Below are positions 25,378 to 29,336 of a stretch of DNA of 64,000 nt, piece after piece. Numbering within the stretch: the first letter of the stretch is position 1; each line of letters starts with the position of its first letter. Below the pieces are notes generated by a model. It was not told the origin of the DNA and ran no database searches. It saw nothing but the letters and a program-made list of their open reading frames with translations. The stretch spans positions 15,494-79,493 of the forward strand of contig CAYWCW010000009.1 of NCBI GenBank assembly GCA_964456865.1, read 5' to 3'. A program made the position numbers and the translations under genes. This DNA is from an uncultured Cellvibrionaceae bacterium. GTDB lineage: Bacteria > Pseudomonadota > Gammaproteobacteria > Pseudomonadales > Cellvibrionaceae.

Positions 25378-26271
25378 TCATCTTACACACATGTACCAAT
25401 CGTTTGGCGCGGGGTAGCCTGCACCCGCCAGGTGGGCCATGTAGTATGGCATCCATTGACTCCCTAAATTGGCACAGGCCTGCTCTATCGATTCCGGTGT
25501 GCCGCCTTCAGCGGTAACGATCGCATAGTCATCTGAAAAATCCCAGATCCCTTGGCAGCTTCCATCCTCCGTATTGTGAAACCTCAGGTTCCCCTGGCTG
25601 TTCAGGGGGCCAATCAGCCTCATATCAAGCCAGTCGGGCGCACTCAGGCAATTGTCACTCCAGAGCTGGCGGCAATGGCTGTCGATATCCAGGCCGCAGG
25701 TTGCAGAATTACCGAGCGTCAGTCCGACGGCACAGGCTGGCGGCGCATCCGGATCGGGCTCATCGCTGGATGCCAGCAGGGACTGCGACAGGTCAGGAAA
25801 GCAGGACTCGTACCCGGGCATATCGATATCGGCTATACGCAGGTTGACGCCTGCGTTGTTGACAAAGTGCTGCGCACTGAAGCCGACGATATCTCCACCT
25901 TGAGGGATGGGAGTGACTGAAAGCGCCAGGGTTTCACCTGCCGGGTTGGTAAAGCTGGACAGGAGTTGCGCGCGCAGACCGGGGCTCTGCCAAAGGACCA
26001 GTCCCACCGCTGTGGCAGCCAGCACGGACGAGAGCATCTGCCGGTGGCGTTGATGGCGCAGCAGCCAAAAGCTCGCTGCAAAAATCGCCAATCCCAACAG
26101 CAGCAACGCCCAGGGGTTGTCCACCGGAACGGGCACGGCGCCCATATGGCTGCTCAGGGGTTCGGTGGTGATGCTCTGGGCCAGCAGGTTGCTGGAATAT
26201 AAGCCGCACACCGCGGCGGTGACGCGTATGAGTAGTGATCTCGGAGCTTGTAAAATGGTTGACGGGGCCAT
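25378..26271 (-). CDS. Exported paralog A, midcut-by-XrtH-like protein
   Basis: Signal-like N-terminus ending LLAQ, internal VPVPVDNPWALLLL...LLRHQRHR sorting-like TM, second hydrophobic segment, 8-Cys exported part; start uncertain. Confidence 0.7.
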   Translation of the reverse strand: MAPSTILQAPRSLLIRVTAAVCGLYSSNLLAQSITTEPLSSHMGAVPVPVDNPWALLLLGLAIFAASFWLLRHQRHRQMLSSVLAATAVGLVLWQSPGLRAQLLSSFTNPAGETLALSVTPIPQGGDIVGFSAQHFVNNAGVNLRIADIDMPGYESCFPDLSQSLLASSDEPDPDAPPACAVGLTLGNSATCGLDIDSHCRQLWSDNCLSAPDWLDMRLIGPLNSQGNLRFHNTEDGSCQGIWDFSDDYAIVTAEGGTPESIEQACANLGSQWMPYYMAHLAGAGYPAPNDWYMCVR

Positions 26272-27312
26272 TATGGAATCATTATCAATCAAGCAGTTCG
26301 GTTCATTAAAGGGCGCCCAGGCACAATTGATCAAGGTTAGCCGGATCATTGATCTGTGGCGGTTCTCAACGGTAACAGAGGTACCAGTTATCTGGCACGG
26401 GATAAAAATCCACCAGATGGAAGCCAATGTTGTATGCCTCTGCTCCACTGCCTAGTGTATTCGCGCAAGCCTCATCCACCATTTGCTCCGTGAGATTCTC
26501 CCCTTCAATGGTAATGATCGAGAGGTAAGTTGAGAACTGCACATAATTATCACAGCTACCATCCCTCGATGAGTAAAAGAACACATTATTCGGTGTGTTC
26601 AATGGGCCGACCAACCTCATGTCCTCCCAGAAGGTTTCGGGTGAACGAAGGCAGCTGTCATTCCAGAGCTGGCGGCAATGGCTGTCGATATCCAGGCCAC
26701 AGGTTGCTGAATTACCGAGCGTCAGTCCGATGGCACAGGCTGGGGGCGCATCAGGATCGGGCTCATCGCTGGAGGACAGCAAGGACTGCGATGGGTCGGG
26801 GAAGCAAACTCCAAACTCGGGCATCTCGATATCGGCTATACGCAGGTTGACGCCTGCATTGTTGACAAAGTGCTGCGCACTGAAGCCAGCGATATCTCCA
26901 CCTTGAGGGATGGGAGTGACTGAAAACGCCAGGGTTTCACCTGCCGGATTGGTAAAGCTGGACAGGACCTGCGCGCGCAGATCCGGACTTTGCCAGAGTG
27001 CCAGCCCGGCGGTTGCGGCAGCCAGCACGGTGGAGAATATCTGCCGGTGGCGTTGATGGCGCAGCAACCAGAAGCTGGTTGCAAACACGGCCAACACCAA
27101 CAGCAGCAACGCCCAGGGGCTGTTGACCGGAACGGGCACGGCGCCCATATGACTGCTCAGGGGTTCGGTGGTGATGCTCTGGGCCAGCAGGTTGCTGGAA
27201 TATAAGCCGCACACCGCGGCGGTGACGCGAATGAGTAGTGATCTCGGAGCTTGTAACATGGTTGACAGGGCCTTTATGGAATCATTATCAATCAAGCAGT
27301 TCGGTCCATTAT
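25661..27312. repeat. Tandem duplication of paralogs A/B, 1003-bp period
   Basis: 25661-26310 aligns by eye to 26664-27312 at high identity, including about 40 nt upstream of the starts. Confidence 0.9.
26366..27259 (-). CDS. Exported paralog B, midcut-by-XrtH-like protein
   Basis: Same architecture as A; start ATG 27259 or TTG 27295. Confidence 0.7.
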   Translation of the reverse strand: MLQAPRSLLIRVTAAVCGLYSSNLLAQSITTEPLSSHMGAVPVPVNSPWALLLLVLAVFATSFWLLRHQRHRQIFSTVLAAATAGLALWQSPDLRAQVLSSFTNPAGETLAFSVTPIPQGGDIAGFSAQHFVNNAGVNLRIADIEMPEFGVCFPDPSQSLLSSSDEPDPDAPPACAIGLTLGNSATCGLDIDSHCRQLWNDSCLRSPETFWEDMRLVGPLNTPNNVFFYSSRDGSCDNYVQFSTYLSIITIEGENLTEQMVDEACANTLGSGAEAYNIGFHLVDFYPVPDNWYLCYR

Positions 27313-27581
27313 AGGAATAACGGATTCTCTGTAACAGGGCCGTTGCAGAAACGCAACACGGGCTGCCGGCCCATTTTTCATGGGGAGCCGTGCCCTGGGC
27401 GTTGGATCCTGATAATTTATTTGAAATCAGCTGCTTAGGCCGGGACTGTGACCTGCGGCACAGCGCGTATTGTGATTGTCAGGCCGGGAGTGTATCGTAA
27501 CGCCTTTTTTCCGTGGTCGGCGTTGGCAGAGTCTGTGCCTGGCATTCGGGTTGACAATAACAGACAGAGAGGGCAATCCAG

Positions 27582-28235
27582 ATGAAAGTCATCTTGTTGG
27601 GTGCACCGGGAGCGGGTAAGGGTACCCAGGCACAATTGATCATGGAGCACTTCGGCATACCCCAGATTTCCACCGGTGATATGTTGCGTGCCGCGGTCAA
27701 GGCGGGCACCCCGCTGGGAATGCAGGCCAAGGACATCATGGCATCGGGCGGACTGGTTTCTGATGACCTGATCATTGCGCTGGTCAAGGAGCGCATCAGC
27801 GCCAGCGATTGTGCCAACGGATTTTTGTTTGATGGATTTCCCCGCACCATCCCCCAGGCGGAAGCGCTGCTGGAGGCGGGCATCCATATCGATCATGTGA
27901 TCGAGATCGATGTCGCCGATGAAGAAATCGTATCGCGTCTGAGCGGCCGCCGTGTGCACGAGGCGTCGGGCCGTGTCTATCATGTCATCCACAATAAGCC
28001 TAAGCGCGAGGGCCTCGACGATGCCACCGGCGAGCCGCTGGTCCAGCGCCCGGATGATAAAGAAGAGACCGTGCGCAAGCGTCTCGCGGTATATCACGAG
28101 CAGACCAAACCCCTGGTAGGTTTTTATCAATCGCTGGCCGCGTCCGGATCACCCAGGGCGCCCAGGTACACCCGCATCAACGGTATTGGCAGTGTGGACA
28201 CCATCCGCGCCCAACTCATGGACGTGCTGGGATAG
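27582..28235 (+). CDS. adk: Adenylate kinase
   Basis: [48 protein letters not shown]. Confidence 0.96.
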
Positions 28236-28305
28236 CGGGTTCGTCTTCACGGCTTGTAGGGTGTAACATCACCGGCCTGGTCCCGCGCACTCATTAAGTC
28301 GACGT

Positions 28306-28325
28306 GCCCGCAGCGGGCTGCGGGC
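28306..28325. other. GC-rich palindrome between convergent adk and paralog C
   Basis: GCCCGCAGC-GG-GCTGCGGGC, 9-bp arms. Confidence 0.5.
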
Positions 28326-28445
28326 TCGCTTGCTCATGGTGGAAACCAAAACATCTGTATATTCAGCCCCGACGTCTTCCACACTCAGGCATCAGCCTGC
28401 TGCTCAGCAGTTCGAACGGTGCCCTGATCACTGGAATAGGGAGCA

Positions 28446-29336
28446 TCATTCAGTACAGAGGTACCAATTGTCTGGTACAGAGTATGCTTCTACCATATGG
28501 AAGTTGTTTGAAAAGGCCTCCCATCCGGTGCCCAATGTACTCACACAAGCCTCGGTCACCATTTCCTGCGCAAGGTCCTCCCCCTCGATGGTTATGACTG
28601 CGAACTGTCTTGGTAAAAAATCGTAATGCAAGCAAGTTCCATCTGCCGAATTATAGAATGCGACATTATCCGAGGTATTCAGGGGAGCGACCAACCTCAT
28701 GTCGACCCAGCTGCCTGATCCATCAAAGCAGCTGTCGCTCCACAGTTTGCGACAATGGCTGTCGATGTCAAGGCTGCAGGCTGCGGAATTGTCGAGTGTC
28801 AACCCGATGAAACAGGCTGGCGGTTCATCCGGGTCGGGTTGCTGGCTGGGAGGAAGCAGTGACCGCTGTGCGTCAGGGAAGCAAGCCTCGATGCTCGGCA
28901 TATCAATTTCAGTAATGCGTAGCCCGACGCCTGCATCGTTGACGAAGTGCTGTGCATTGAATCTGGCGATATTTTCCTGCTGGATAATGGGATTCACTGA
29001 AAATTCCAGGGTTTCACCTTGCGGATCGGTGAAGCTGGATAGGACCTGCGCACGCAGATCAGGGCTCTGCCAGAGTGCGAGTCCCGCTGCCGCAGTGGCC
29101 AGCACGGCGGAGAATATCTGCCGGTGGCGTTGATGGCGCAGCAGCCAGAAGCTGGTTGCGAATACGGCCAACACCAGTAGCAGCAGAGCCCAGGGGCTAT
29201 TGACCGGAACAGGCGCTGCAGCGAGCTGACTGCTCATCGGTTCAGTGGTAATGCTTTGGGCCACTCCGCTACTGGAGTACAAGCCGGACACTACGGCGAT
29301 GGTATACATGAGAAATGGTCTGGTAGGGTGTAACAT
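28446..29336 (-). CDS. Exported paralog C, midcut-by-XrtH-like protein
   Basis: Same architecture; PVPVNSPWALLLL...RHQRHR; ends YSVPDNWYLCTE. Confidence 0.7.
   Translation of the reverse strand: MLHPTRPFLMYTIAVVSGLYSSSGVAQSITTEPMSSQLAAAPVPVNSPWALLLLVLAVFATSFWLLRHQRHRQIFSAVLATAAAGLALWQSPDLRAQVLSSFTDPQGETLEFSVNPIIQQENIARFNAQHFVNDAGVGLRITEIDMPSIEACFPDAQRSLLPPSQQPDPDEPPACFIGLTLDNSAACSLDIDSHCRKLWSDSCFDGSGSWVDMRLVAPLNTSDNVAFYNSADGTCLHYDFLPRQFAVITIEGEDLAQEMVTEACVSTLGTGWEAFSNNFHMVEAYSVPDNWYLCTE

Follow-up and report, generated by a model that had tools for sequence, protein, structure and literature searches.

Three midcut-by-XrtH paralogs around adk in an uncultured Cellvibrionaceae bacterium carry an uncatalogued four-cysteine domain

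The stretch of DNA analyzed here (the window, 64,000 nucleotides [nt]) belongs to an uncultured Cellvibrionaceae bacterium and corresponds to C9:15494-79493, i.e., contig CAYWCW010000009.1, of a 3.8-Mb assembly of 51 contigs (GCA_964456865.1). It contains three paralogous genes on the minus strand, termed A, B, and C, which encode midcut-by-XrtH proteins with a sorting signal of the exosortase H (XrtH) type inside the chain and a C-terminal domain that we found in no catalogue. Paralogs A (25378-26271, delineated from its open reading frame and translation) and B (26366-27259) encode 297 amino acids (aa) each, and paralog C (28446-29336) encodes 296 aa. B and C are separated by the native housekeeping gene adk for adenylate kinase (27582-28235, plus strand; Pfam ADK, 187.6 bits). 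A and B are arranged in tandem with a period of ∼988 bp, and the duplicated unit takes in ∼45 nt of 5′ leader. The start codons of A and B are inferred, and their open frames run further upstream. A promoter-like sequence (GTTACA-16-TATAAT, 27335-27308) was found upstream of B, and GAGGA precedes the ATG of C by ∼8 nt. Over the full alignment, B and C are 74% and 56% identical to A, respectively.

All three proteins share the same order of elements: a signal-like N terminus, the sequence QSITTEP, the segment (V/A)PVPV(D/N)(N/S)PWALLLL, a helix, the basic cluster RHQRHRQ, a second hydrophobic helix, and an exported part with eight positionally conserved cysteines (residues 157, 180, 192, 200, 208, 239, 266, and 295 in A). 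Located between a predicted signal peptidase site (A31|Q32) and the sorting motif is a conserved 14-aa peptide, QSITTEPLSSHMGA (A, 26137-26178; B, 27140-27181; C, 29217-29258; like all elements listed here, on the minus strand). It is followed by the internal IPTL-like sorting signal, which consists of VPVPVDNPW, the helix TM1, and RHQRHRQ (A, 26038-26136; B, 27041-27139; C, 29118-29216), and by the second hydrophobic helix, TM2, with the signal-peptide-like c-region WQSPGLRA|Q (A, 25969-26037; B, 26972-27040; C, 29049-29117). Four of the eight cysteines belong to a family-wide, beta-rich exported domain with the motif FTNPAGET ... N.AG..LRI ... CFP ... C ... C ... C (A, 25669-25968; B, 26672-26971; C, 28749-29048). 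The other four are in the C-terminal "tip," an uncatalogued alpha/beta domain of ∼90 aa (A, 25381-25650; B, 26369-26653; C, 28449-28730). A preliminary description of this DNA had listed the signal-like N terminus, the internal segment, the second helix, the eight cysteines, and a set of tip motifs as shared by the three copies, and alignment bore out each of them.

Family membership was assessed with NF033207 ("midcut-by-XrtH"), a curated NCBIfam hidden Markov model (HMM) of the subfamily_domain type with 175 positions and a cutoff of 45 bits. A, B, and C scored 106.9, 109.2, and 110.1 bits, respectively, and matched model positions 7 to 174 with residues ∼13 to 196 (18 to 196 in A); the beta-rich exported domain lies within the model. 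The three proteins are genuine members of this curated family, and the likeness to midcut-by-XrtH and IPTL-CTERM proteins, which the preliminary description had noted and proposed for an HMM search, proved correct. The tag itself, comprising VPVPV(D/N)(N/S)PW, a 17-residue helix, and RHQRHRQ, occupies residues 41 to 78 and is followed by ∼220 further residues. Matches to the IPTL-CTERM models stayed below threshold: PF18203 reached 11.6 to 13.1 bits on B and C (cutoff, ∼20.8), which is the only Pfam trace in the three proteins, and TIGR04174 reached 15 to 16 bits on all three (cutoff, 20.5). On account of these scores and of the internal position of the tag, we did not class A, B, and C as canonical IPTL-CTERM proteins, despite the clear kinship of their tag. 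The tag is in register with the genome's own C-terminal tags, PIPTLSMWG and QVPTLSVWG ([IV]P[TV][LDN][SN].W[GA], then a helix and a basic cluster), and the midcut model also matches canonical tags of this genome, among them the C-terminal tag of a 1,890-aa IPTL-CTERM adhesin.

The gene of this adhesin forms an operon with xrtH and the gene of an XrtH-associated membrane protein, outside the window on contig C2 (C2:176143-182983; L023:6143-12983). The adhesin contains nine DUF7933 domains, SdrD_B, and DUF11 ahead of its terminal tag, and its stop codon is overlapped by xrtH by 4 nt. XrtH is 187 aa long (TIGR04177, 174.1 bits against a cutoff of 86; C2:176792-177250) and carries the CxG cysteine and the conserved arginine of the exosortase signature; the adjoining XrtH-associated protein scored 178 bits with NF041730 (cutoff, 35). 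Four canonical IPTL-CTERM tags above the cutoff were present in the genome. The preliminary description had staked its reading on an XrtH being encoded somewhere in the genome, and the enzyme was found together with its associated protein and canonical substrates. A genome-wide search also retrieved two further midcut paralogs, both with an IPT/TIG domain, at C7:74695-76065 (minus strand; L024:4695-6065) and C27:32573-33820 (plus strand; L025:5573-6820). The C7 paralog has EGF-like domains too (matches to Pfam EGF and hEGF), which is unusual in a bacterium, and a similar Cys-rich stretch, unmatched in Pfam, closes the C27 paralog. Two more tag-like sequences were noted. On the same contig as A, B, and C, ∼11 kb before the window, a canonical IPTL-CTERM tag (APTLSLWG..., C9:4534-4605, minus strand) closes a protein of ∼770 aa that, judged by eye, has a choice-of-anchor-U-like stretch ahead of the tag. 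At C2:172700-172765 (plus strand), an IPTL-CTERM match of 24.7 bits, with the motif NPWGLALL resembling the midcut tag, ends an Arg-rich frame that extends into a run of N; this gene is probably misframed or incompletely assembled.

A pattern scan of 185,579 species genomes revealed four more midcut loci, in a Cellvibrionaceae metagenome-assembled genome (MAG), Delftia acidovorans NBRC 14950, Paracidovorax valerianellae DSM 16619, and an Acidobacteriota MAG, and XrtH was present in all four genomes. Neither NF033207 nor XrtH was detected above the cutoff in 40 relatives, namely, 24 congeneric species and 16 representatives of other families of the order. Of 400 genomes sampled evenly from the class, 14 encoded XrtH and 3 encoded midcut proteins, all 3 being among the XrtH-positive ones. 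With the present genome left out of this sample, the counts were 2 of 13 XrtH-positive versus 0 of 386 XrtH-negative genomes (hypergeometric P ∼1e-3), these counts being samples in which kin are not independent. Within the samples searched, midcut genes were restricted to XrtH-positive genomes.

Comparison of the homologues showed that they are alike over the first ∼200 residues only. Downstream of this part, they carried an IPT/TIG domain with DUF1566/Lcl, arrays of Ig-like repeats, IPT/TIG with or without EGF-like domains, or no payload. Because the homologues share just these N-terminal residues and differ in the payloads that follow, the module is a self-contained unit, and adhesin-type domains are attached to it. 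The four module cysteines (C152, C175, C187, and C195 in B) are invariant in the family. Payload-bearing relatives ranged from 420 aa to 1,396 aa, the longest being a Delftia protein with Ig-like arrays; A, B, and C, at ∼30 kDa, were the smallest payload-bearing midcut proteins retrieved. An adhesin-like role of A, B, and C would fit the IPT/TIG, EGF-like, DUF1566/Lcl, and Ig-like domains of their homologues. Payload-less members were found in two genomes, one with eight paralogs of ∼175 to 205 aa (G063) and one with two (G210), and the tag of the payload-less G063 subgroup reads VPT/L..GG. Five of the G063 paralogs stand in tandem (G063:C23:129320-132725; L033, L035-L037). In G210, the end of a short midcut gene (L034:1441-2864; G210:C6) is overlapped by a fatty-acid-hydroxylase gene (PF04116, 96 bits); a genome search found no PF04116 gene in the genome to which the window belongs.

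The payload of A, B, and C differs from all of these. No Pfam or NCBIfam model matched the tip, and no sequence match was found in the PDB, profiles included. An exhaustive phmmer search with the last 102 residues of B against 1.84 billion representatives retrieved eight proteins besides the window copies, and a profile search added three (all relatives, P0009 to P0019). These relatives are either secreted proteins of ∼180 aa with a different Cys-rich domain at the N terminus or actinobacterial lipoproteins with two to four tandem copies of the domain. In an alignment of 20 domain instances, cysteine matched cysteine throughout, with all four invariant, and the signature C, x6-9, D, x2, [LYF], x, G, ..., N, ..., DG[ST]C, ..., C, ..., Y, x2-3, P, x2, [WL][YW][LM]C emerged, with D..[LYF].G...[TSG]..N as further positions between the first cysteine and DG[ST]C. 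The conserved scaffold motifs that the preliminary description had seen on the tip were thereby retained, but their meaning changed: they are the signature of a wider domain family. P0009, P0010, and P0013 to P0019 have the same four-Cys signature as the window tips and all bear signal peptides or lipoboxes, so they are extracytoplasmic; they occur in other contexts than the window tips, have no midcut module, are 25 to 45% identical to the window tips, and none is named. In P0011 (534 aa, from a metagenome), four tandem copies of the tip domain occur together with a choice-of-anchor U domain (NF041766, 56 bits), a combination that links the tip domain to surface-protein architectures. The genes of distant homologues were located on short contigs or in housekeeping neighborhoods (groES/groEL, tsaD), with one actinobacterial lipoprotein gene beside groES/groEL.

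AlphaFold2 modeled the tip, from a nine-row alignment, as an alpha/beta fold with a pLDDT of 84 and a pTM of 0.76. Foldseek searches with this model against the PDB and BFVD returned no analogue (best E value, >2; best TM-score, 0.33), and for the tip and full-length models together (the latter searched against the PDB) nothing fell below an E value of 0.49, with TM-scores of ≤0.33. The structural check proposed in the preliminary description thus yielded a confident model with no analogue in either database. A relationship to DUF1566/Lcl (PF07603), a payload of other midcut proteins, was considered and rejected (hhalign probability, 0.7%; no Pfam match). An IQ-TREE phylogeny of the 20 instances left the monophyly of the window tips unresolved, and the domain was found in 0 of 63 congeneric species. 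The tip is a discrete, extracytoplasmic, uncatalogued domain family that occurs in several phyla.

These data suggest, with a probability that we put at roughly 0.6, that A, B, and C are noncanonical clients of exosortase H in which the conserved module of ∼200 aa is combined with a lineage-specific four-Cys payload. How such a client might be handled was considered from its topology and from the conservation of its putative cleavage sites. RHQRHR is probably cytoplasmic and both of its flanks outside, because this arrangement follows from the positive-inside rule and from the AlphaFold model of full-length B, in which the helices 48-67 and 69-89 form a hairpin; flanks on the outside would also fit the eight disulfide-forming cysteines. 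A|Q follows both hydrophobic segments. At the 14-aa peptide, 11 to 17 homologues conserve I-T-T-x-P and have a nearly invariant A and Q. After TM2, L94, A96, and Q97 are invariant, and W89 and P92 nearly so, in 11 homologues from three distant groups. TM2 has the anatomy of a signal peptide, with the basic cluster as the n-region, an h-region of ∼16 residues, and WQSP.LRA|Q as the c-region; cleavage after TM2 may occur at LRA|Q. In the full-length model, residues 110 to 200 of B have a pLDDT of ∼80. Residues 27 to 33, within the conserved peptide, lie in a beta strand predicted with low confidence; called a strand by DSSP, they must have a partner.

In the leading model, which as a complete chain of processing and tethering is tentative, the helix hairpin would, after Sec export, leave RHQRHR on the cytoplasmic side and the two flanks in the periplasm. 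XrtH would then cut at VPV(D/N)(N/S)PW and move the short N-terminal peptide onto an anchor, and signal peptidase would remove the second helix by using RHQRHR as the n-region and SP.LRA|Q as the c-region. The disulfide-bonded body would be held by the peptide acting as an added beta strand, and the product would sit on the surface, attached through its N terminus, with the four-Cys domain forming a distal binding head. A surface location is suggested by the payloads of homologues, which reach 1,396 aa. Put more generally, the midcut module may enable an enzyme made for C-terminal tags to attach a protein through its N terminus, a doubtful proposition as a whole. It would take three cuts on one precursor, by signal peptidase at the first A|Q, by XrtH at the sorting motif, and by signal peptidase again behind TM2. 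The 14-residue peptide would accept the XrtH anchor and hold the body as a noncovalently inserted beta strand, and at the far end the four-Cys head would be displayed as a ligand-binding module in three specificities.

Several observations weigh against this reading. The full-length model is weak (pLDDT, 64 overall and ∼57 to 60 over the N-terminal strand), the h-region of TM2, at ∼16 aa, is of marginal length for a signal that can be cleaved, Ala-rich sequences often contain A-x-A-like sites, and the payload-less subgroup of G063 and G210 lacks LRA|Q. Moreover, no experiment on XrtH or any midcut protein came up when the full-text literature was searched on XrtH, IPTL-CTERM, and midcut; in the literature searched, one paper mentions an IPTL-CTERM tag in passing. 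Alternatively, the precursor might be cut once or never and remain anchored in the inner membrane by its hairpin, as a periplasmic protein or as a docking or regulatory partner (a pseudo-substrate) of XrtH, with XrtH at most trimming the peptide. Two helices joined by a 7-residue basic loop would make a plausible permanent anchor, the short members of G063 and G210 (∼180 to 250 aa) manage with neither payload nor LRA|Q, and A, B, and C, with ∼200 exported aa, are small enough for the periplasm. The adhesin-type payloads of up to 1,396 aa are not: going by what is generally known of repeat adhesins, they are far longer than the periplasm is wide. The A|Q after the second helix is strictly conserved across three phyla-level groups. 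Furthermore, if the signal peptide is lost anyway, a cut by XrtH would change nothing for a hairpin-anchored body, and the conservation of peptide and motif would be left unexplained. We regard this main alternative as rather unlikely.

A different explanation concerns the tips, which the preliminary description had called hypervariable and had taken for a diversified set of adhesins, receptors, or decoys. According to this explanation, the tips bind ligands or decoys, and diversifying selection has made their surfaces diverge while the Cys scaffold stayed fixed, as happens in families shaped by antigenic variation or receptor diversification. The last ∼95 aa are indeed only 36 to 53% identical among A, B, and C, compared to 67 to 90% for the modules (the first ∼205 aa), and tip omega is 1.3 to 2 times module omega. 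However, pairwise GY94 maximum likelihood estimates of omega were below 1 everywhere: 0.24 to 0.47 in the tip, each significantly below 1 (twice the log-likelihood difference to omega = 1, 5.9 to 21.3), and 0.18 to 0.27 in the module. At non-scaffold tip positions, defined from domain family members outside the window alone, omega was 0.34 to 0.54 and never above 1, the difference from 1 not being significant in two of the three pairs. NG86 and fourfold-site analyses were likewise in line with omega below 1. Tip synonymous divergence (dS) was saturated (1.3 to 1.6), which together with only three sequences gives these tests low power, and none for site tests.

The contrast between tip and module has another source. 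At fourfold-degenerate sites, A and B diverged by 10% in the module and by 57% in the tip (P = 1.5e-4), and for the pairs with C the divergence was equal in both parts (∼40%). The grouping supported by informative sites changes along the gene: codons 1 to 43 and 100 to 206 place A with B, the tag and helix region places B with C about equally often, and the tip is star-like. Gene conversion has homogenized the module of A and B, which largely accounts for the A-B contrast, and the tip is under net purifying selection. In addition, the scaffold is common to unrelated proteins from other phyla, and no extra copies, template repeats, or silent cassettes were found in the genome. Nothing in the three-sequence data supports site-specific positive selection, and the hypervariable tip as a product of selection-driven diversification could not be upheld; we consider it quite improbable. 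The simplest reading is that A, B, and C are old paralogs with a gene-converted module and with heads that are weakly constrained on the surface. A dedicated mutagenic or cassette mechanism is effectively refuted, be it recombination with silent copies or a diversity-generating retroelement, whose targets are typically built like these proteins, with a conserved scaffold and a variable C terminus, since blastn and tblastn searches with the three tips matched only the three genes in the whole assembly, no template repeat lies nearby, and the differences occur at all codon positions with saturated dS.

In the congeners, adk lies directly beside an Lrp/AsnC regulator gene or is followed by a gene for diaminopimelate (DAP) dehydrogenase, and no midcut genes are present there. 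The G+C content of the A-B-C region is 0.55 to 0.58, compared to 0.60 to 0.62 in its flanks. Because they are absent from the adk neighborhood of congeners, restricted in distribution, and lower in G+C than the flanks, A, B, and C are species-specific insertions around adk. Upstream of adk, a stretch of ∼48 nt (27468-27516) is 82 to 85% identical in several congeners, the adjacent intergenic DNA not being conserved, and may be an adk leader or regulatory element. Beyond paralog C, the window encodes a predicted lipoprotein of 488 to 514 aa with long poly-Ser/Ala linkers and a sub-threshold DUF3108-like C-terminal domain (30070-31614, minus strand); its gene adjoins a UPF0047 (YjbQ-like) gene and a HopJ-family gene (31611-31958).

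The preliminary description had seen in these genes the best candidate for an undescribed system. This does not hold for the module, which is already catalogued in NF033207, and the locus does not represent a novel type of system; the claim is valid for the tip alone, and what is new here are the uncatalogued payload domain and the three-copy arrangement. Found in several phyla, confidently modeled, and having no structural analogue, the ∼90-aa four-Cys domain could be deposited as a new family. To our knowledge, exosortases are widespread, and for most of them, XrtH included, neither cleavage nor the chemistry of the anchor has been shown. The size of A, B, and C (∼30 kDa) suits intact-mass and N-terminal analysis, which would reveal the XrtH cut site and the attachment.

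Three known systems, ArtA with PGF-CTERM, rhombosortase with GlyGly-CTERM, and myxosortase with MYXO-CTERM, follow a common logic with XrtH, in that a membrane enzyme removes a tail of helix plus basic cluster while the protein stays tethered to the envelope. In these three systems, the tags occur only at the C terminus and the chemistry is at least partly known; unlike XrtH, they are backed by experimental evidence in the literature, for example for myxosortase (PMC11980579). Canonical IPTL-CTERM proteins (TIGR04174/PF18203, with TIGR04177) have the same tripartite tag of motif, hydrophobic helix, and basic cluster as A, B, and C, and the same enzyme is presumed to act on both. In A, B, and C, in contrast, the tag lies 40 to 45 residues from the N terminus, the "cargo" ahead of it is just 14 residues, and a further helix and the entire exported body come after it. 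The NF033207 relatives from the Cellvibrionaceae MAG, D. acidovorans, P. valerianellae, and the Acidobacteriota MAG have the same signal peptide, peptide, tag, second helix, and four-Cys beta domain. Where the other midcut proteins retrieved carry IPT/TIG, DUF1566/Lcl, EGF-like, or Ig-like repeat domains or nothing, A, B, and C carry the ∼90-aa four-Cys domain.

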